This document shows positions 22,663 through 37,532 of a DNA stretch of 64,000 nt, one piece after another; positions within the stretch are counted from its first letter, which is position 1; every line of letters starts with the position of its first letter. Under the pieces are notes generated by a model. That model had not been told where the DNA came from, searched no databases, and saw only the letters and a program-made list of their open reading frames with translations. The DNA lies in the IMG/VR virus record IMGVR_UViG_3300036772_000425, positions 202,924 through 266,923 of that record. One strand, 5' to 3'. The position numbers were made by a program, and so were the translations under genes. Source of the DNA: a virus.

Positions 22663-23679
22663 TCACAGCCTCAGCTTCATCTTCTGAATGTTGGGCCAGC
22701 TTCGTTCGTACCACTCGACGGTACGATCGAGACCCTCCCAAAAACTGACCCGCGGACTGTACCCCAGCCGTTGCTGGATGTTCGTGATATCAGCACAGGT
22801 GTGCATCACATCGCCCGCCCTCCAGGGAGCGTCCGTCCGGGCGGCGTTTGGGTACCGCTTCATCAGTTCATCCATGATCTGCATGTTGCTGACGCTGCTT
22901 CCGCACGCTACGTTGAACCGTGCGGCCTCCAACGGTTCAACGTGCTCGGCCGCGGCGATGCATGCATCCACCACGTTGCCCACGTAGCACATGTCACGGG
23001 TCTGCTCCCCCGTCCCGTCGCTGCGCATCGGACGCCCCTGGTGGATGGCTGTCAACCATGCTGAAACAGCGGTAGAGTACGGGCTGTCACCCAGCTGGTT
23101 CTCGCCGAACACGTTGAAGAATCTCATGCACGCGGAGTCCAACCCGTAGAGCCTCCAGTACATCATGAGGTAGTCCTCAATGATGGATTTCTGCAGGGCG
23201 TAGGGTGACTTCGGATCCTTCGGATGCGATTCAGGAGTGGGTAGTGCGTCAGCACCACCGTACACGGAACTGCTGGAGGCGAAGATGACACGTGTCCGCG
23301 TGCCGCGGCACGCTTCCAGCAGGCTCAACGTCCTTGTCACGTTGGTGTCATTGGTCTCAACAGGATGTTCCACGGAGTAGCTGACCCTGGGCAGGGCCGC
23401 CAGGTGGAACACCGTGTCGTACGTGCCGGTCCTGATCCGGCGCCGTGGGGATCCGGTTGCAAAATCGCACTTGAAGAAGGTGGGACCAGCAGGAAACCGA
23501 TGCCCGGTCCAGTGCTCAGTGGTTGCCACGTCAGGTTGGATCAGCTGGCCCGGCAAGAACTCCCGGTGCCCGTTCGACAGGTCGTCGACCACATCGACTG
23601 ACCAACCCTTCTCGAAACATCGCTTGGCCAGGTTGCTCCCGATGAACCCAGCACCACCGGTGATCAGGACCACCCTCAT
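22663..23679 (-). CDS. NAD-dependent nucleotide-sugar epimerase/dehydratase (SDR)
   Basis: VLITGGAGFIGSNL Rossmann motif; YALQK (YxxxK) catalytic motif. Confidence 0.8.
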   Translation of the reverse strand: MRVVLITGGAGFIGSNLAKRCFEKGWSVDVVDDLSNGHREFLPGQLIQPDVATTEHWTGHRFPAGPTFFKCDFATGSPRRRIRTGTYDTVFHLAALPRVSYSVEHPVETNDTNVTRTLSLLEACRGTRTRVIFASSSSVYGGADALPTPESHPKDPKSPYALQKSIIEDYLMMYWRLYGLDSACMRFFNVFGENQLGDSPYSTAVSAWLTAIHQGRPMRSDGTGEQTRDMCYVGNVVDACIAAAEHVEPLEAARFNVACGSSVSNMQIMDELMKRYPNAARTDAPWRAGDVMHTCADITNIQQRLGYSPRVSFWEGLDRTVEWYERSWPNIQKMKLRL

Positions 23680-29030: not shown

Positions 29031-30395
29031 TCATGCGATCAACTTCACCTTCCAGAGGCCGGTCGACACCCCGAAATCATCCTTCTTGACCTCCGCCACG
29101 TAGAGCCGGAAGGGTTCCAGGAGCTCCTTCGCAGTCCATACGCTCAACCGGATCGGCTTTCCGATCGGCCCTGTGACAAAGACCTGGACGTAGTCCTTGC
29201 CTGCCTTCGACCTCTTCTTCAGGCCCGCCACCGGCTCTCCGCCCTTCTTCACGGTCGCCAACACCGTGACGAACCACACCACGTCAGTCTCACCGAGCTC
29301 CAGATCCTCGATGGATCCTACGCCCTTGTTGTCCATGCGCCCGAAGATCTCCGGATCGAACATGGTGGTGACGTCCGCGGTGCCGAAGAGCTCTGACTGG
29401 AACCCAGCGAGTTCACGTTGGGTCCATTCCTCCGAAAAATCATCACGAAGACCGCGGGCCAGGCCGTACAGGTTCTTCCTGCCCTCATGCCGATCCTTTG
29501 TGGGTGATCGCTTGATCATGGCACCGTGGTCGCGGACACGTTCGACCATCTCGGTGGATCCCTTCCTGCGTGGGACCTCCTCCGTGTACGAACCCATCAT
29601 GACCTCGTACATGTGACGGTAGCTGCCGAACAATCGATCATCACCGACGCAGTTCAGGCTGTCGAAGGCCCGGATCTTGATCAGGGCTTCCATCGCTTTC
29701 CTGTTGAGCTTGCTGGGGCGCCAGCTACCGTCCTCCGCGTACAGGAGAGCCTCAAGGTCAGAGAACGGACGGTTTGCCACGATCTCCTCGACAGCCGCCT
29801 CGCCGATCCCCTTGACCGTCGTCATGCTGGGCATCATCCGTTTCCCTGGCAGGATGGTCCAGCTCACGGTGGCATGGTTGATGTCGATGGGCACGATCTG
29901 GTATCCCAAGGAACGTGCCTCGCCGAACGCCTTCGCTCGATGGATGGGAGTGTGCGACATGGACTCCATGTATGCGCACAACCACTGTTCCTCGTAGTAC
30001 GTCAGGAGCCAAGAGCACCAGAAGCTGTCGATGGCATACGCCACCGCATGGCTCTTGTTGAAACCGTAACCTGCAAAGTACAGGATCTTGTCGAAGAGGT
30101 TGCTGGCCACGGCCTCCGTGTACCCATTGGTGATGGCGCCCTGGATGAAAGGATCCCGAATCTCCTTCTTTGCCTTCTCGGCAGCGGCTCCCACCAACTT
30201 CATGATGGCGCGACGGACCTCGTCGCACTTGTCCTTCGGGAACCCGGCGACCTTCTCGGCAAGTTCCATCACCTGCTCCTGAAAAATTATACAGTTATGC
30301 ACCAGAAGGTTATTTGCGAAGAAGTTGTGGTTCTTCTTGACCTGGATGTCGTACACCGGTTGGGCCGGTTTCCGCACGATCGACCGGATCTTCAT
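29031..30395 (-). CDS. dnaE: DNA polymerase III alpha subunit C-terminal fragment (DnaE-C) preceded by a split-intein C-fragment
   Basis: begins MKIRSIVRKPAQPVYDIQVKKNHNFFANNLLVHN|C (an Npu DnaE IntC-like VYDIGVERDHNFALKNGFIASN|C); the extein contains AGYGFNKSHAVAYA, the hallmark of DnaE. Confidence 0.85.
   Translation of the reverse strand: MKIRSIVRKPAQPVYDIQVKKNHNFFANNLLVHNCIIFQEQVMELAEKVAGFPKDKCDEVRRAIMKLVGAAAEKAKKEIRDPFIQGAITNGYTEAVASNLFDKILYFAGYGFNKSHAVAYAIDSFWCSWLLTYYEEQWLCAYMESMSHTPIHRAKAFGEARSLGYQIVPIDINHATVSWTILPGKRMMPSMTTVKGIGEAAVEEIVANRPFSDLEALLYAEDGSWRPSKLNRKAMEALIKIRAFDSLNCVGDDRLFGSYRHMYEVMMGSYTEEVPRRKGSTEMVERVRDHGAMIKRSPTKDRHEGRKNLYGLARGLRDDFSEEWTQRELAGFQSELFGTADVTTMFDPEIFGRMDNKGVGSIEDLELGETDVVWFVTVLATVKKGGEPVAGLKKRSKAGKDYVQVFVTGPIGKPIRLSVWTAKELLEPFRLYVAEVKKDDFGVSTGLWKVKLIA
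30294..30395 (-). mobile_element. split intein C-terminal fragment (IntC, 34 aa) of DnaE
   Basis: blocks F/G with terminal HN followed by the +1 Cys at 30291-30293. Confidence 0.8.
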
Positions 30396-30415
30396 GGGCG
30401 CAACGGTCTGCATGC

Positions 30416-31153
30416 CTACATTTTCCTCAATTTGCTGGGATAGTTCACTGCCTCGGACGCCCATACCCGATGGACGGTGTACCCGAGCGCCTCGCCAGCC
30501 CTCGTGAACGACAGGTCGATCCTGAACTGTCGTTTCATCTTGGGGGTGAGCTGGTGCATGTCAGGGTTGCCGTGCCAGTAGTCCCCGTCGAACTCCACGA
30601 TGAGCTTGATGGACGGGACGCAGAAGTCGAACTCATGGTTGATGGTGTCAACACGGAACCGATGGATGACCTCGTCACCGTGGATCGCCTCCAACACGCT
30701 CTTGAACGCGAGCTCAGCCTCCGAGTTCCGCTTCCGAGGTTTCTGCGTCTCGAGCCCTTTGCTGATCTTTCGAGAGTGTTCATCGAAGAAACCGGCCTCA
30801 TGTGAGCGCAGGTGCCATGTCAAACCGCGGTGTCGTTTGAAGATCCGACCGCACTGGTCGCAGGCCACGTCAGTCGCCTCATCGTTCGAACTGCAGTAGG
30901 ATCTGTGGGAACGCAGTGCCGTGTTGGAACAGAAGTCCTTCTTGCAAACATCGCACCGGTACTCACCCTCCTTCCGGACGTTCTCCCGCAGTTTCGCGAT
31001 CCTCAATTTCTCCAGGTGTTCATCGGTGAACTTTCGACCCTTGTATGTTCGGCGGCGCCATTCCGACAGGTGTTCGATGCAGCATGCGACAGACCGCACG
31101 TTGCGTGTCACGTACTGCTTGTCGCAGATAAGACACGTTCTGTTCAATTTCAT
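30416..31153 (-). CDS. C2H2 zinc-finger protein with C-terminal Vsr/DUF559-like endonuclease domain (putative free-standing homing endonuclease)
   Basis: two C2H2 fingers (CDVCKKDFCSNTALRSHRSYC; CDQCGRIFKRHRGLTWHLRSH); C-terminal IVEFDGDYWHG...D..R...L...GY.V.RVW matches the DUF559/Vsr-like fold signature; 20 nt upstream of IntC. Confidence 0.6.
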   Translation of the reverse strand: MKLNRTCLICDKQYVTRNVRSVACCIEHLSEWRRRTYKGRKFTDEHLEKLRIAKLRENVRKEGEYRCDVCKKDFCSNTALRSHRSYCSSNDEATDVACDQCGRIFKRHRGLTWHLRSHEAGFFDEHSRKISKGLETQKPRKRNSEAELAFKSVLEAIHGDEVIHRFRVDTINHEFDFCVPSIKLIVEFDGDYWHGNPDMHQLTPKMKRQFRIDLSFTRAGEALGYTVHRVWASEAVNYPSKLRKM

Positions 31154-31188
31154 CTTCCAGTAGCCTTTCCTGGAAGATAGGTATCAGC

Positions 31189-32268
31189 ATGAGCGCCCTT
31201 GAGAAGGTTTCATACAAATTTGTGCAGTATGCAAAATCCTGCATCAGGCAGAACACAGAGGCTGCACTGCGTGATATGCGGATCCCATTGAACCCAGCTC
31301 AGTGGGATCAACTGGCGCCCATCATCTCAGCCTCGATCGATGAAGCTTACGCTCATGCATTTCCCGAACTAGACTCACTGATGCGATCGCCCGATAGCAT
31401 CGATCCAGAGACGTTCGACATCCCTGATGGTTTGATCGAATTCGCTGGTAAGATGACATCGCAGGCGAAGCGTAAGACTGCGGCCTTCACCATCGTTCGC
31501 AACGAATCCTTCTTCCTGGAACTGTGGTGCCGGTACTACGCTCGTGAGTTCGGAGCGAGCAACCTGTACATCCTGGACAACAGCACGTCAGACGGTAGCG
31601 TCGAAAGGATCAAGGTTCGATGGCCCGACATCAACATCGTCCTCGTGCCCAGTGTCGAAGCCATGCGATGGGCCTGGTGTACCAGCATCGTACGATGCTT
31701 CCAGAAGATCTGCCTGAAGGGTTACGATGTCGTGGTGTTCTCAGACGCTGATGAGTACCTGGTACCGGATGACGGACATGGACTGCGGGCCTACGTTGAA
31801 CGATTCCGAAATTCAGATCTGTCGTACGTTCGGGCCACCGGTTGGGGGGTGGTGCAGCAACTGGACACCGAGGGTTCGATCACCTCGCACGAACAGGTTC
31901 TTACTGATCGACGAAAGGCCTGGCGCACGAGGGCCTACGACAAGACATTGATCAGCAAGGTTCCCTTGGATTGGGCTAAAGGCAGTCACACCATTCGCAT
32001 CAACGGTGCGAAGATGACAGGTGATCCGTGCGATCCGACACTGTCGCTGGTTCACCTGCGTGACCTGGACGTTGCTATGTTCCACGAACGCTGCTTGAAG
32101 CTTGCTGCGCTGAACCCAGCCGGGCTACCTTTGGCGCACCACGGTTCTATCGACCTTCGTCAGATCGAGGAGTACTTTCGCACGCTGAAAGCCCCTTGGA
32201 ATCCACTGGCGATCCATTACGAAGGATCGCCAGTGGATGTTCCAGAGACCTGGCGCGCATCAATCTAG
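31189..32268 (+). CDS. GT-A-like glycosyltransferase family protein (DxD)
   Basis: FTIVRNESFFLELWCRYY...ILDNSTSDGS...VVFSDADEY pattern typical of GT-A nucleotide-diphospho-sugar transferases; plus strand between the dnaE halves. Confidence 0.45.
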   Translation: MSALEKVSYKFVQYAKSCIRQNTEAALRDMRIPLNPAQWDQLAPIISASIDEAYAHAFPELDSLMRSPDSIDPETFDIPDGLIEFAGKMTSQAKRKTAAFTIVRNESFFLELWCRYYAREFGASNLYILDNSTSDGSVERIKVRWPDINIVLVPSVEAMRWAWCTSIVRCFQKICLKGYDVVVFSDADEYLVPDDGHGLRAYVERFRNSDLSYVRATGWGVVQQLDTEGSITSHEQVLTDRRKAWRTRAYDKTLISKVPLDWAKGSHTIRINGAKMTGDPCDPTLSLVHLRDLDVAMFHERCLKLAALNPAGLPLAHHGSIDLRQIEEYFRTLKAPWNPLAIHYEGSPVDVPETWRASI

Positions 32269-33150
32269 GATGAAGGTGCGCACAACTCCGACAGTTCCGT
32301 TCTGCACGCCGCTTCCGCCAGCAACGGCGATCGAACCGCTGTTTTGCAACACGTTCGCCGTCACGATCAGGATAAGACCTCCGGCACCCCCGCCGCCCCA
32401 CCCGTTGGGATCGTTCTGTCCACCGTTTGCATGGATCGACCCGCCGCTTGCAACGATCAGATCGTGAGCGATAAGGGCAATCACGCCGCCACCACCACCG
32501 CCTGAACCTTGCGCTCCGGATCCACCACCCGCTCCACCGGTGATGGGCAAACTTGAACCCGCAGATGCGTGGACAAGATCTTGGACGGCGACAGGTACAA
32601 CATCTCCCATGGATGTCATGTTCCAGAATGGAACGTAGCTACCACCGTGGAACGACGTTCCGGAACCATCGCCACCTCGAGCGTTGGCTCCTAGCACACC
32701 GTTTGTTGATGCAACACCATCGGAATTCGATCCACCGGTGCTTCCACCGCCCAATGTGCCAGCTGGGCCACCCACGCCGCCAGGACCAGGATTTCCACCT
32801 CCGCCGTTCGAACCATTTCCGCCGTCGCAGGCGACAGTACCGCTGATGGTGCACAGGTTCTGAACGAAGATCCGATAACCGTTGCTGAACAGGGTTTGAC
32901 CCGATTGAACAGTCAACGTCGAATAGTACATGTCCCGCGACAGCGTAGTGCTACCTGAAATCACAACGCTACCATCACTACCGTTTCCGTAGGACGATGT
33001 TGAGTTTGAGTTCCCTTCGATCAACACCGACCCGTTGGACTGGCTCGTGATGCTGACACCGCTACCGGCGATCAGGTAAGACGAGCCGTCAACCAGTTGT
33101 GTAAGGGACCCAGAAATACCGCCCAGTGAATCGACAATGAATGTTTTCAT
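32260..33150 (-). CDS. Gly/Ser-rich beta-helix-like repeat protein (possible fibre or structural protein)
   Basis: 296 aa dominated by GGxGxxG, NGS and SGS repeats; lies immediately downstream of dnaE-N/IntN. Confidence 0.45.
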   Translation of the reverse strand: MKTFIVDSLGGISGSLTQLVDGSSYLIAGSGVSITSQSNGSVLIEGNSNSTSSYGNGSDGSVVISGSTTLSRDMYYSTLTVQSGQTLFSNGYRIFVQNLCTISGTVACDGGNGSNGGGGNPGPGGVGGPAGTLGGGSTGGSNSDGVASTNGVLGANARGGDGSGTSFHGGSYVPFWNMTSMGDVVPVAVQDLVHASAGSSLPITGGAGGGSGAQGSGGGGGGVIALIAHDLIVASGGSIHANGGQNDPNGWGGGGAGGLILIVTANVLQNSGSIAVAGGSGVQNGTVGVVRTFILD

Positions 33151-33171
33151 GTCGATAAGTATCGAGTCGGC

Positions 33172-35985
33172 TCAGTCGGCGATGCGAGTGATCGAATCCG
33201 TGTCCAGAAGTTGCCCTGCCTCGACCCACCCACGTTGGGTCATCACCAGGTGATCCTCGGTCAGTTCCAGGGTGGTCCCGTCATCCATCGTGAGCTCGAT
33301 GATGTCACGAACACCGTTGCAGACCACGGCGACCACTTCGTCCATCTCCACTTGACCCGTGGATTCATTGTAGGACGGAAGCTTGGTACCCACCATGTTC
33401 CGGTCCACGATTTCTTTGATGGGCACCTCGCCCATCTCAGTCATCACCCGGGTGTCACCCGTCAGGCAGGAATTGGTCTTCGCCAGGATCTTGTTGATCC
33501 GGACGTCGCCCCATTCGATCTCCTCCCCGTTGTTCTTTGCCTTCAGGTACAGCTTGTCGACGTTGGCCGCAAGGGGTCCAGGTCGGTAGATGGAGGTCAG
33601 GGTTGCGATGTCGACGATGCTGGTGGGCTTCGCCTTGACGAACAGCTTCTGAGCTCCGGCAGACGTCAGCTGGAAGATGCCTGCCCATCGGGCCTGAGCG
33701 TAGACCTCGTAGGGTCGTTGGTCCATGAAGTCAATGACATCAGGGGCCAGGTGTTGCTCGTACCAACCTCGGATGTCGTCGAAGGTGGGTTTCGGGTTGC
33801 CGCCCTTGATCAGGATCAGCTCGATGGTGCGCTCGATGAGCCGCATGGTCTCCAGGCCCAGCAAGTCGTACTTGATGAACTCACCGATCTTCTCCAGGTG
33901 CTTGGCATTCAGCCCTTCCACCCACGGTGATTGTGGCTCACGCTCGCCACCCTTTCCCTTGGAGGTGACCAGCGGCATCTTGCTGGGCAGGTCGTCTGCG
34001 ATGAGAACCCCACCAGCGTGGCGTCCCAGGGAACGATTCTGCTTGAACAGGGTGTTGATGGATTCTGCAACCTGCGGGTGCCTGTCAATGAAACCCTTGA
34101 ACGATGGGCTGACGGGCTTGTCGCAGTCGGGTGAACAACCGGTGCACACCGATTTCAACCTCTTGTTGACAAGATCCTCGCACAGGAAGCCGACAGCGTC
34201 GGCGTACATCAGGTTGAACAGGTTCTTGTCGTCTCCCTGCCGGGAGATCGCCCTACGAACCTCGTCCTCCACCGTGCGGGTGGCTGCATTGACCTCCTCG
34301 AATGGAACACCGTAGAACTTGCCGAGATCCTTCACCAGCGACTTCAGCTTGAAGTTGTTGTAGTTGGAGATCGGGACGACGTTCTCCCATCCGAAGAACT
34401 TCCGGAGCTCGTTGAGCACCTTGTCACGGTCCGCAAGGTCCGTATCGATGTCAGGGGCGCCCTTGCGGTACACGCTGAGGAAACGAGCGAAGGGAAGGTC
34501 CCACTTGAGAGGATCGAGGTCGGTGATGAAGAGGACGTAGGCCACCAACGAACCACCGCCGGAACCACGAGCGGGGCCGACAAGGCACACCTTGCGCGCC
34601 AGCTCCATGATCTTCTGGTACGAGATGAAGTACACCTCGTTCTTCATCTGCTTGATGACCCCCAGTTCCTCCTTGAGCCGAGCGATGTAGTCCTGCTTGT
34701 CATGCAGGCCGCGGCGCAGCATGCCAGCCTTGCACAGGTTGACAAGGTGGTTGAAGCTCGGAGTCCCCTCCGGGATCAATTTCTTGGTCGGGAACTTCGG
34801 GCTTCGATCGGGCGGTACCTCACCGATCACCCTGTGAGCGATGTCATGGGTACGCTCCACCGCGTCCCGGATCACATCATCCCGGTACCAGCCGGTGCCG
34901 TCCTTGCTCTTCAGGTACTCGTCCCAGATCTGGGCAGCGTTCTTCGGATAGAGTTCGCACTTGAGCTCATCCTTGGAACGAGGGAGGCTGTCGGGCTTGA
35001 TCTCGTAGCCCATCCAACCCAGCTTCTTGTAGAGTTCGCGTTCCTTCCACAGCTCGGGTCGAGCGTAGTGGGAGTCAGCGGTGACGACCAGCTGCTGGTT
35101 GAGCCCATTGCGCTCGGTGAACTCCATGATCGCACGGTTGACCAGGTTCTGGGCCGACAACCGGTTGAACTGCAGCTCCAGGTAGTAGTTCCCCTCGCCG
35201 ACAGCGTCGACCATCTGCTGGTAGACGTTGCCCACCGCGGCGACGCACCGGTCCAGAAGATTTGGATCGTCCAGGAGAGCGGCGTTGAGGTCGTCGAACT
35301 TGTGCTTCTGCAGTTCCTGGAACATTGCGAAGGCGGGGGCGCCGCCGATGCAGGCGCTGGTCACCACCACGTTCCGATCCTTACCGGCTTCCTTTAACAT
35401 CGAGAAATCGATGCGAGGGAACTTGTAGAACCCGTTCAGGTACCCCTTCGCCGTTGCGGCGAAGATGGAAAGGAGACCCTGTTGGTTCTTGGGCAGCAGG
35501 ACCAGGTGGTGTCGACGGTTGACCGGGTTGAAGTGCTTGGTCGATTTGGTCTCATCCTCGTTCTCGATGGTCAGAGCGTTGGAAAGCTCCAAATCCTCGG
35601 TCTCATCGTCACCGTCGACAGTGGCGATCACCTTGGTTTGCATGAATTCCTGCTCCTTACGGAGCTTCTTGGCCTCTGCCTTGTCCTGCTTCGCACGTTC
35701 TGCACGGGCCATGTCCTGGCGCCAGATGTCGAGATCAGGATGGTAGTACGCTTCGATGCCCGGGATGTACTTGAAAGGCTTGTCCTTGTTGGACTTCGTC
35801 CAGTCCTCCACCCAAAGTTGGGCCCAGGCATAGGAATTCATGCTGCCATGTTCCGTGATGGCCATCGCATCCATTCCATTTTCGATGGCAAAGCGGAAAT
35901 GTTCATCGGGATATCCCAAGCCATCGAACGCGCTGAACCCAGTGTGAGAATGAAGGCCAACAAACCGCTGCGGAGCATCAGGCAT
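33172..35985 (-). CDS. dnaE: DNA polymerase III alpha subunit N-terminal fragment (DnaE-N) ending in a split-intein N-fragment
   Basis: PHP domain RFVGLHSHTGFSAFDG at the N-terminus; ends ...NS|CLTGDTRV...TEDHLVMTQRGWVEAGQLLDTDSITRIAD* (an Npu DnaE IntN-like CLSYETEI...KDHKFMTVDGQ). Confidence 0.85.
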   Translation of the reverse strand: MPDAPQRFVGLHSHTGFSAFDGLGYPDEHFRFAIENGMDAMAITEHGSMNSYAWAQLWVEDWTKSNKDKPFKYIPGIEAYYHPDLDIWRQDMARAERAKQDKAEAKKLRKEQEFMQTKVIATVDGDDETEDLELSNALTIENEDETKSTKHFNPVNRRHHLVLLPKNQQGLLSIFAATAKGYLNGFYKFPRIDFSMLKEAGKDRNVVVTSACIGGAPAFAMFQELQKHKFDDLNAALLDDPNLLDRCVAAVGNVYQQMVDAVGEGNYYLELQFNRLSAQNLVNRAIMEFTERNGLNQQLVVTADSHYARPELWKERELYKKLGWMGYEIKPDSLPRSKDELKCELYPKNAAQIWDEYLKSKDGTGWYRDDVIRDAVERTHDIAHRVIGEVPPDRSPKFPTKKLIPEGTPSFNHLVNLCKAGMLRRGLHDKQDYIARLKEELGVIKQMKNEVYFISYQKIMELARKVCLVGPARGSGGGSLVAYVLFITDLDPLKWDLPFARFLSVYRKGAPDIDTDLADRDKVLNELRKFFGWENVVPISNYNNFKLKSLVKDLGKFYGVPFEEVNAATRTVEDEVRRAISRQGDDKNLFNLMYADAVGFLCEDLVNKRLKSVCTGCSPDCDKPVSPSFKGFIDRHPQVAESINTLFKQNRSLGRHAGGVLIADDLPSKMPLVTSKGKGGEREPQSPWVEGLNAKHLEKIGEFIKYDLLGLETMRLIERTIELILIKGGNPKPTFDDIRGWYEQHLAPDVIDFMDQRPYEVYAQARWAGIFQLTSAGAQKLFVKAKPTSIVDIATLTSIYRPGPLAANVDKLYLKAKNNGEEIEWGDVRINKILAKTNSCLTGDTRVMTEMGEVPIKEIVDRNMVGTKLPSYNESTGQVEMDEVVAVVCNGVRDIIELTMDDGTTLELTEDHLVMTQRGWVEAGQLLDTDSITRIAD
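33175..33468 (-). mobile_element. split intein N-terminal fragment (IntN, 98 aa) of DnaE
   Basis: block A CLTGDTRV (Cys1 codon 33466-33468) and block B TEDHLVMT; terminated by a stop codon, with no contiguous C-terminal intein part. Confidence 0.8.
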
Positions 35986-35999
35986 AGAACACCCTACCA

Positions 36000-36569
36000 C
36001 TAAAGGTTGGCCCATTTCACAAGATACGCTTGAGCGTTCAAAACGAAGTCCCGATCTTCAACAACTGCCAGCTTCAAATTGCAATTTCGACACAACAATC
36101 CTCTGATCCTACCTGAGTTGTGATCATGATCGACTGCAGCGGAGTTCACATCGAAAGCTGATTTGCAGATCTCGCAAAGAAAATCCTGTGAGATCAGTTT
36201 GTCCCTGAACTCAGAATGACAAATCCCATAGTTCTTGATCCGACGAATGTCAGAACTCGTTGAAACGCACTCATCACAGTAAAGCTGGCTGCTGGAATTC
36301 AGCTTGAAGTTTTTCTTGCAGTGCTTGCAGCACTTGTCCTTCAAAGATCGATTACGTACAGCTTCGACAAGCTGCGGAGTTCTAACTTGTCTTTCACGTA
36401 CTAGTCCAAAACGATGGATAGCGTACTGAATCTGTCCTTGCGTCACCGTGAGACCGAGCGTCTCCAAACGATTCCCGATGATCGATGCCGACAATTTGTC
36501 AAGCATGTACCAAGCAACGATCTCTTGACGAAAGGCATCAAGTTTGATTTGAACTGCATTCATCTTCAA
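36000..36569 (-). CDS. Endonuclease VII (T4 gp49)-family HNH-like nuclease with N-terminal HTH-like domain; probable homing endonuclease
   Basis: AVDHDHNSGRIRGLLCRNCN hallmark plus CKHCKK upstream; the gene lies in a ~43% GC island. Confidence 0.65.
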   Translation of the reverse strand: MKMNAVQIKLDAFRQEIVAWYMLDKLSASIIGNRLETLGLTVTQGQIQYAIHRFGLVRERQVRTPQLVEAVRNRSLKDKCCKHCKKNFKLNSSSQLYCDECVSTSSDIRRIKNYGICHSEFRDKLISQDFLCEICKSAFDVNSAAVDHDHNSGRIRGLLCRNCNLKLAVVEDRDFVLNAQAYLVKWANL

Positions 36570-36572
36570 ACT

Positions 36573-37532
36573 TCACTTGCACACCTTCCTGAAGTACTCG
36601 ATCGACAGGTCCAGCCCTTCTTCGAGCTGTACCCTGGCATCCCAACCCATGTAGGCTCGAGCCAATGAGGTGTCCGGGCGGCGCTGCAGCGGATCATCGC
36701 ACGGCAACGACCTGAACGTGATACCAACACCGAAGCGCTTGGCGACATTTTGGGCCAGCTCAAGGATCGTGAACTCGTTCGGATTGCCCATGTTCACCGG
36801 TCCGCCCGGATTCTTGGGTAGTTCACCCAAGGCCACGATGCCCCTGATCAGGTCGTCTACGTAGCAGAAGGAACGTGTCTGCGATCCGTCCCCGTAGACC
36901 GTGAGATCCTGGCCCCTGATGCCCTGGCAGATGAAGTTGCTGATCACTCGACCATCGTCGGGGTCCATGTTGGGACCGTAGGTGTTGAAGATCCTGACGA
37001 GCCGAGCGTCTGTTCCGTGCTTGTGAAGGTAGTCGTAGCACAGTGACTCAGCGGCGCGCTTCCCTTCATCGTAGCACGAACGTGGACCGTAGCTGTTGAC
37101 GCTGCCGCGGTACGCCTCAGCCTGTGGGATCAGTTCAGGGTCACCGTACACCTCAGAGGTCGATGCATGGACGATCCTGGCGCCCCTGTCGCCAGCAAAG
37201 TCCAGGATGTTCTTGGTGCCTACCACGCACGTCATCAACGTTTCGATCGGGATCCTCTGGTAGATGGGCGGCGAGGCCGGACACGCGAAGTTGTACGCGA
37301 CGTCAAGGCATCGGATCTTCTTCAAGGATCTCTGCCATCCTGTACTGGCAGAGATGTCGCCCTCTACCATGGTGAAGTTCGGATGTTCGCACAGGGCACG
37401 GTAGTGCGCGCTGCTACGGGTCGATGAACAGAAGTTGTCGATTCCAAAGACAAGATCTCCCTGGACAAGGTGATGCATCGACAGGTGCGATCCGAGGAAC
37501 CCAGCGGCGCCGGTGACCAGCACCCGCATCAT
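36573..37532 (-). CDS. UDP-glucuronate decarboxylase/UDP-xylose synthase-like SDR (NAD-dependent epimerase/dehydratase)
   Basis: VLVTGAAGFLGSHL; SEVYGDP; YDEGK (YxxxK); C-terminal QRRPDTSLARAYMGW typical of the UXS/ArnA-like subfamily. Confidence 0.75.
   Translation of the reverse strand: MMRVLVTGAAGFLGSHLSMHHLVQGDLVFGIDNFCSSTRSSAHYRALCEHPNFTMVEGDISASTGWQRSLKKIRCLDVAYNFACPASPPIYQRIPIETLMTCVVGTKNILDFAGDRGARIVHASTSEVYGDPELIPQAEAYRGSVNSYGPRSCYDEGKRAAESLCYDYLHKHGTDARLVRIFNTYGPNMDPDDGRVISNFICQGIRGQDLTVYGDGSQTRSFCYVDDLIRGIVALGELPKNPGGPVNMGNPNEFTILELAQNVAKRFGVGITFRSLPCDDPLQRRPDTSLARAYMGWDARVQLEEGLDLSIEYFRKVCK

Follow-up and report, generated by a model that had tools for sequence, protein, structure and literature searches.

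A phage dnaE gene in two pieces at a predicted split intein, with a zinc-finger endonuclease gene and apparent cargo in the gap

How can a phage keep its replicative polymerase when the gene for it lies in two pieces with other genes between them? The question is raised by dnaE, the gene for the DNA polymerase III (Pol III) alpha subunit, in a 64,000-nt stretch of viral DNA (hereafter the window; positions 202,924 to 266,923 of IMG/VR record IMGVR_UViG_3300036772_000425), on whose coordinates all gene positions are given. Here dnaE consists of two open reading frames (ORFs) on the same strand, 33172..35985 and 29031..30413, which keep their original order and locus and are separated by 2.76 kb. 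The locus is a fractured gene in the sense of Dassa et al. (2009, NAR 37:2560, PMC2677866), in which a split intein cuts the gene of a conserved enzyme, mostly in phages, and a free-standing endonuclease gene stands between the two parts; its basic arrangement has been known since 2009. Very probably, the dnaE gene of a phage whose genome measures 340 kb or more was invaded by a mini-intein at a conserved site before the YQEQVM motif, and cargo later landed in the gap. Compared with the kind described in 2009, its variant features are gap cargo with an apparent duplicative insertion, a zinc-finger endonuclease of the EDxHD type, and well-preserved traces of homing.

The polymerase halves and the split intein

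Five ORFs lie between 29,031 and 35,985 in the ORF listing, and an independent gene caller found the same five on the source contig, which bears out the two same-strand dnaE ORFs described in an earlier note on this DNA. The upstream ORF, dnaE-N (minus strand, 937 aa), carries PHP and Pol III alpha domains and positions 10–115 of the Pfam finger model, then runs through ..AKTNS/CLTGDTRV.. (slashes mark intein borders or the matching points in other alleles) into a 98-aa Hint-like tail that ends RIAD-stop. Its N-extein (33469..35985, 839 aa) comprises the PHP domain, the Pol III alpha core and the beginning of the fingers (Pfam PHP, DNA_pol3_alpha and DNA_pol3_finger) and ends in ..ILAKTNS; the tail, IntN (33172..33468), reads CLTGDTRV..LTEDHLVMT..RIAD up to the stop codon. 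The downstream ORF, dnaE-C (minus strand), opens with IntC (30294..30413, 40 aa, MQTVAPMKIRSIVRKPAQPVYDIQVKKNHNFFANNLLVHN; Pfam Intein_splicing positions 107–155) and reads ..VYDIQVKKNHNFFANNLLVHN/CIIFQEQ.. at the border with the C-extein (29031..30293, 420 aa plus stop codon). The C-extein starts CIIFQEQVMEL and holds the rest of the fingers, including GYGFNKSH, together with HHH_6 and the C-terminal region. Because the N half covers finger positions 10–115 and the C half positions 113–165, the finger model is interrupted near position 114 by the intein halves.

The start of dnaE-C is most likely the ATG at 30413. This codon lies 2 nt past the stop codon of the endonuclease gene, has GAGGA 10 nt upstream (30424–30428), and opens an N-terminus (MQTVAPMKIR or MPDVVPVKIR) that is kept in relatives. 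With this start IntC has 40 residues, rather than the 34 given in the earlier note. The 2-nt spacing also makes it probable that dnaE-C is translationally coupled to the endonuclease gene, and the two dnaE pieces would be translated separately.

Motifs and end-to-end alignment agree that dnaE-N ends in an intein N-half and that dnaE-C starts with the matching C-half, as had been proposed. The class 1 motifs are all present, namely block A with Cys1 (CLTGD..), block B LTEDH (TxxH), block F VYDIQVKKNHNF, and block G with the +1 residue, LLVHN/C; blocks A, B, F and G all align to known inteins. Fused to one another, IntN and IntC can be aligned with solved mini-inteins along the whole sequence, best with the Spl DnaX intein (7.5e-17), followed by NrdJ-1 (7e-12), a DnaB intein (8e-11) and Npu DnaE (~3e-8). 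Close kinship with the Npu/Ssp DnaE inteins, which had been claimed, is rejected, since that match is weaker than those to the DnaX, NrdJ-1 and DnaB inteins.

By these motifs the intein is of the canonical Cys1/Cys+1 type and is split at the usual endonuclease-insertion loop. It shares with the Npu/Ssp DnaE inteins the Pol III alpha host, the Cys1/Cys+1 residues, the canonical-loop split, an N-half of ~100 aa and a C-half of ~35–40 aa; the cyanobacterial halves, in contrast, lie at distant loci without an endonuclease gene, whereas here they are adjacent and accompanied by one. NrdJ-1 and gp41-1 are likewise naturally split inteins from fractured phage genes, and NrdJ-1 is the second-best solved match. 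Their host proteins and insertion sites are different, however, and trans-splicing, which is experimentally characterised for those two, is a prediction here.

The residues on which splicing would depend are well kept. Cys1, LTEDH, VYDIQVKKNHNF and LLVHN/C are conserved in three related loci (L002, L010 and L033; relatives are cited by such L numbers throughout), and likewise in L009 except for a His-to-Asn change in block F. Taken together, conservation of the splice residues (Cys1, the block B Thr and His, blocks F and G, and the +1 Cys) covers five loci or lineages. The ratio of non-synonymous to synonymous divergence (pN/pS) is ~0.25–0.35 for IntN, IntC and the endonuclease gene, with IntN at ~0.3, a rough figure because synonymous sites are near saturation. 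All dnaE domains are intact, and the exteins are under purifying selection. Net charge is −13 for IntN and +5 for IntC. The acidic and the basic half would associate, and trans-splicing would link ..AKTNS to CIIFQEQ.. to yield an inferred polymerase of 1,259 aa.

Intact relatives define the insertion site. In L003, L004 and L008, the unsplit alleles that the earlier note had advised looking for, N-extein residue 839 directly joins C-extein residue 1, so that the exteins abut seamlessly; the N-extein is 75% identical to intact alleles of 1,200–1,277 aa. The spliced junction is collinear with E. coli Pol III alpha, with the −1 Ser at G682 and the +1 Cys at I683, just ahead of YQEQVM, and the C-extein is collinear with E. 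coli residues 683–787. Since GYGFNKSH lies at E. coli 753–760 (FNKSH at 756–760), AEY/CFNKSH, which we take from the earlier note to be the cyanobacterial DnaE intein site, corresponds to Y754/G755. The insertion point at G682/I683 is therefore a different one, as suspected.

The nearest intein-free alleles read ..KKTFS/CIIFQEQVMELA, which makes the +1 Cys native to the extein; another allele group has G/L there. Empty alleles already carry S/T followed by C at the site (..AAGACCTTCTCC/TGCATCATCTTCCAGGAGCAG..). By eye, the empty site also shows an inverted repeat, CTCCTG-N10-CAGGAG, across the insertion point.

Naturally split DnaE inteins had been presented as essentially cyanobacterial. That premise is out of date, because three fractured DnaE loci from phage-like metagenome DNA, with Vsr-like endonuclease genes and with insertion points that differ from one another and from the cyanobacterial one, were described in 2009 (PMC2677866).

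The endonuclease gene and traces of homing

The free-standing gene at 30416..31153 (minus strand) encodes a 245-aa protein whose N-terminal region is Cys-rich and which has two C2H2-type zinc fingers (residues 65–87 and 96–118; Pfam 3e-8) and a C-terminal Vsr-like (EDxHD) domain at residues ~140–240; Pfam also returned a weak DUF559 match. The finger ligands are all invariant across 25 homologs. Sequence and profile searches against solved structures found zinc-finger proteins only, the best being ZFP568 and Aart, so the nuclease family was set by structure prediction and fold search. The AlphaFold2 model, built from the 25 homologs, has a mean pLDDT of 90, and its nuclease domain has the fold of Vsr and I-Bth0305I. 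D176, E187, H194 and D213 are invariant in the 25 sequences and follow a Vsr-like spacing, with E187 11 residues after D176 and H194 a further 7 on. The 18 residues from D176 to H194 equal the distance from Asp51 to His69 of Vsr and put E187 at the position of Vsr Phe62, a mapping made by spacing and not by residue-level superposition; an invariant Glu at this position has been described for the Vsr-like family (Dassa et al., PMC2677866). On the modelled fold and the invariant, Vsr-spaced D/E/H/D residues, we assign the protein to the Vsr-like EDxHD homing endonucleases, in agreement with the earlier description of the middle gene as a zinc-finger/Vsr-like endonuclease.

What sets this protein apart is its N-terminal region. 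For the EDxHD endonuclease family, N-terminal regions of the NUMOD/HTH type have been described (PMC3239194), and the prototype I-Bth0305I (PDB 3R3P, PMC3239194) is intron-encoded and binds DNA through NUMOD/HTH. The protein described here, in contrast, is free-standing within a split intein, and in place of a NUMOD/HTH region it has two C2H2-type fingers and an N-terminal Cys cluster. We found no report of a C2H2/Vsr-like homing endonuclease in the searchable literature, and the lineage is small, with 29 clusters. With eukaryote-like C2H2 fingers joined to a nuclease domain of the Vsr type, this phage protein has in effect the architecture of a natural zinc-finger nuclease.

A hairpin lies in the leader of the endonuclease gene (31151..31179, minus strand, ATCTTCCAG-N9-CTGGAAGAT), and its 3′ arm holds the first two bases of the endonuclease ATG. 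Both the Vsr-like endonuclease family and a leader hairpin at this position have been described before (PMC2677866). The predicted folding energy is −14 kcal/mol (z = −3.79; 0 of 200 shuffles fold equally well), and the hairpin is conserved in five lineages, including L002, L010, L041 and L042, with a compensatory U-A to C-G change in L043. By sequestering the ATG, it would hold down translation of the endonuclease.

The 5′ arm copies the target flank of empty alleles. Arm and loop together are a copy of the unrecoded flank: ATCTTTCAGGAGCAG in L002, L010 and L041 matches empty sites at 14 of 15 positions (0 of 300 shuffles), and the window copy matches at 12 of 15. Over its longer extent (31151–31185, minus strand; L002:8340–8375) the leader contains a near-exact empty-allele target flank (ATCTTYCAGGAGCAG), and in L002 this copy shares the reading frame of the endonuclease ATG (..ILIFQEQRWK-M..). 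The copy may be a fossil of a former position of the endonuclease gene beside its target, or it may be an operator.

The C-extein flank has itself been recoded in the seven occupied alleles compared (the window, L002, L009, L010, L033, L041 and L043). The first ten C-extein codons (30264–30293, minus strand) are synonymously AT-rich in 7/7 (TGT ATA ATT TTT..), where the three empty alleles have TGC ATC ATC TTC/TTT; third-position GC content over these codons is 0.4–0.5 in the occupied and 0.8–1.0 in the empty alleles. The empty-allele site reads ..AAGACCTTCTCCTGCATCATCTTCCAGGAGCAGGTC.., against ..TGTATAATTTTTCAGGAGCAG.. in the recoded version. The N-extein side of the site is not recoded, and this confinement to the C-extein side points to an endonuclease target located mostly in that flank. 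As read from these sequences, the recoding is consistent with the occupied allele being self-immune or with co-conversion from a donor. The endonuclease would cut the intein-free dnaE of co-infecting relatives, and repair would copy the whole element in.

Cargo in the gap

In the published layout, IntN, a spacer of 27–51 nt, the endonuclease gene and IntC follow one another on one strand (PMC2677866). The window locus resembles the Dassa fractured genes in its adjacent same-strand halves with IntN and IntC ends, the Vsr-like endonuclease gene between them, the leader hairpin, the phage-like origin and the non-cyanobacterial insertion site. It differs in that the spacer between IntN and the endonuclease leader, instead of being short, is filled by a 1,968-bp module of two genes, one of them antisense. 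These are a gene for a Gly-rich protein (32260..33150, minus strand, 296 aa) and a gene for a family-2 glycosyltransferase (GT; 31189..32268, plus strand, 359 aa; Pfam Glyco_tranf_2_4, 1.4e-9, exceeding the curated cut-off), which are convergent with a 9-nt overlap. Three cargo genes had been counted between the dnaE halves; the GT and Gly-rich genes stand as acquired cargo, whereas the endonuclease gene belongs to the mobile element.

The edges of the module bear an apparent insertion signature. GATACYTATC, with one mismatch allowed, occurs exactly twice in the window, on the same strand and at both edges of the insert. The left copy (GATACTTATC, 33154..33163, minus strand) follows the dnaE-N stop codon and precedes the Gly-rich ATG, and the right copy (GATACCTATC, 31176..31185, minus strand) lies between the GT start codon and the leader hairpin. 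The motif is single-copy in L002, L010, L030, L041 and L042, where it lies between IntN and the endonuclease hairpin. When the boundaries are aligned, the left window edge matches these relatives as far as the motif and the right edge from the motif on, a classic insertion pattern. We also considered the 10-nt motif as a promoter used generally by this phage and rejected this, given only two copies in 64 kb. On the sequence evidence, the reading of the pair as acquired cargo with a visible insertion signature is supported. The fractured gap would then have behaved as an ordinary intergenic region, the convergent module would have inserted in the spacer between IntN and the endonuclease leader with duplication of ~10 bp, and the cargo would be incidental to polymerase function.

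The pair also occurs as a unit elsewhere. GT has 22 homologs, on other large contigs, and a convergent Gly-rich gene is next to it wherever flanks are available, which identifies the pair as a conserved module. On the L036/L040 contig, dnaE is intact (1,236 aa), synteny with the window extends from ThyX to dnaE, and the module sits between PNKP and NT5C. In the window only an 86-aa ORF is found in the PNKP–NT5C interval, ~15 kb from the module in the dnaE gap. In L035 and L039 it is found near Cpn60. Across 32 related IMG/VR loci, no GT or Gly-rich homolog lies within 10 kb of dnaE, and IMG/VR scans with the two proteins gave no match.

The Gly-rich protein has no Pfam match, and Pfam and PHROG scans gave no function for it. 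With the partner of GT in L036, likewise convergent, it shares 44% identity (E = 3e-34); the GT partner in L039 has Gly_rich_2 and a match to a tail-fibre-related PHROG. The protein is possibly fibre-like. It has ~2,000 relatives, and its N-terminal unit of ~45–70 aa (..SGSLTQLVDGSSYLIAGSGVSITSQSNGSVLI..) is repeated 10–22 times in giant proteins of 1,300–3,000 aa in a public protein collection, which show weak, scattered CBM_X2-type Pfam signals.

No fewer than eight further loci, of different sample origin, have dnaE broken at this site, with homologous intein halves and endonuclease gene, and the contents of the gap vary. Every sampled same-site allele has extra gap DNA, and the strict published layout occurs in none. 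In the window the module lies on the IntN side of the endonuclease gene and only 2 nt separate that gene from IntC. L002 and L010/L030 show the opposite arrangement, with ~37 nt between IntN and the endonuclease gene and two ORFs (138 and 159 aa) between the endonuclease gene and IntC; L041 likewise has ~37 nt and the 138/159-aa ORFs, one of them interrupted, and L042 has ~52 nt and a 65-aa ORF. L033 carries 603 bp at 45% GC on the IntN side and ~35 nt on the IntC side, and L043/L044 three ORFs, including an Eco57I-type methylase, and ~26 nt. In L009 ~30 nt follow IntN, the endonuclease gene itself is only a remnant, and remnants of the 138-aa ORF precede IntC. The small gap ORFs of these relatives received no functional assignment from Pfam and PHROG. 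The three-ORF arrangement comes from a soil-metagenome relative and is identical in ENA and Logan assemblies of different samples (L043:8331–10871 and L044:3075–5615).

Fragmentation goes further in L010 (L010:1–11100, IMGVR_UViG_3300015608_001846), where dnaE is divided into six pieces that follow one another on one strand, each gap holding a free-standing ORF; L030 has the same arrangement and L009 a similar one. Among the proteins encoded in the L010 gaps, one is NUMOD/I-TevI-like, one is a ROS/MucR zinc-finger protein and one weakly resembles TnsA/Endo I. The piece boundaries are mostly intein-like, and the one internal piece scanned has a Hint domain (Pfam). One break, FNK/SHAVAYA, falls within GYGFNKSH, where the earlier note puts the cyanobacterial site. 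DnaE-N homologs fall in length classes of ~715–780, 836–869 and 1000–1033 aa, which suggest that other fracture sites are common.

The window around dnaE is a replication and nucleotide-metabolism module of a large phage, with RNR, a DnaB-type helicase, a 5′-3′ exonuclease, ThyX, PNKP and RNA ligase; the window contains no tRNA genes and no Rfam families. The gene immediately upstream of dnaE-N (36000–36569, minus strand) encodes an endonuclease VII-family protein that is Cys-rich at its N-terminus, and its stop codon precedes the dnaE-N start by 14 nt. The fractured loci L002 and L030 have homologs at the same place, which in the intact-dnaE locus L040 is taken by a DnaJ/WGR gene. Possibly the window gene is a further free-standing homing endonuclease gene. 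Two genes for NAD-dependent sugar epimerases/dehydratases (36573–37532 and 22663–23679, both minus strand) lie on either side of the dnaE region and, together with GT, suggest that the phage makes or modifies a sugar-containing product.

Rival readings and what the locus means

Could the two halves form an active polymerase without splicing, the intein halves serving as a non-covalent dimerisation module, much as the intein-less split NrdA of phage Aeh1 is held together by interaction domains? Phage split proteins joined by element-derived interaction domains are known (PMC3045599), and no IntC can be recognised at the L010 fracture near N-extein residue 730. Residues needed only for splicing (Cys1, the block B Thr and His, the terminal His-Asn and the +1 Cys) are nevertheless kept under purifying selection in five diverged lineages, and the +1 Cys is retained though some relatives have Leu there. 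We regard a polymerase that works unspliced as improbable.

Still more remote is the idea that assembly or sequencing errors created the split, or that dnaE is a decaying pseudogene. The DNA comes from a metagenome assembly, with SRR11832861 as source sample, and the two assemblies that carry the locus, a 340,433-bp JGI/IMG contig and a 168,718-bp Logan contig, may derive from the same reads. All five proteins are identical on the two contigs, however, the ORF ends coincide, and the fracture is found again in the loci from other samples; intact domains and purifying selection on exteins, intein halves and endonuclease gene likewise speak against decay. By DNA similarity to known phages only short dnaE matches were found, with no close relative, and neither the GT protein nor an exact 43-nt junction pattern gave a match in metagenome scans.

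The status of the cargo is less one-sided. The GT/Gly-rich pair could be a selected part of the element, either hitch-hiking by co-conversion with the endonuclease gene or regulating expression of the polymerase halves. It sits inside the unit that would be copied on homing, all same-site gaps carry extra genes, and a 2023 study (PMC10448857) reports nuclease genes at boundaries of phage genetic exchange. Set against this, the cargo differs in nearly all lineages, the pair occurs away from dnaE in relatives, and nothing connects a glycosyltransferase with replication. We therefore think selection for this particular cargo unlikely.

Several observations weigh against dnaE invaded by a split mini-intein with cargo landing later, the reading we favour. 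While gene anatomy, homologies, fold, conserved residues, purifying selection and comparative layouts are shown, trans-splicing, endonuclease cleavage, translational control and the mode of insertion are inferred. The best 120 homologs include no contiguous intein at G682/I683, the presumed precursor state. The module's position varies among three different contexts, more than one of which could be the ancestral one. A shuffle test on the two boundary spacers recovered the 10-bp repeat in 118 of 20,000 trials (p ~0.006), a value that is suggestive only, as the repeat was spotted post hoc. A related motif, ATACCTA, occurs in the L043 hairpin loop and in L033, so the repeat could be a regulatory element instead of a target duplication. 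Scans for sigma-70 promoters and intrinsic terminators gave no signal above shuffled background, which leaves transcription through the antisense GT gene unexplained. Finally, support from the JGI contig is at the level of protein identity.

A bolder proposal builds on the invasion of dnaE by a split mini-intein. Fracture gaps might be recurrent gene-landing sites in giant phages, the GT/Gly-rich pair here having apparently moved ~15 kb and duplicated 10 bp on insertion without a recognisable transposase, and the endonuclease might be a natural zinc-finger nuclease with a target half-site in its own leader as a possible autoregulatory operator. We advance this tentatively and would sooner expect it to fail than to hold.

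On the practical side, the locus offers two candidate parts for protein engineering, a new naturally split intein whose halves are strongly complementary in charge, and a compact zinc-finger, Vsr-type endonuclease. For phage biology, the finding overturns nothing; its value is comparative, since many stages of the homing cycle can be seen in one dnaE lineage, from empty sites through fractured alleles with an intact endonuclease gene to one allele with an endonuclease remnant only, along with varied gap cargo and a six-piece dnaE. The recoded flanks, the target copy in the leader and the apparent 10-bp duplication make the gene-breaking model of Dassa, with cargo accretion added, directly testable. 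A split intein may make an essential gene tolerant of interruption, so that its gap gathers unrelated genes; if this is true, genes that land there could spread along with the homing element.

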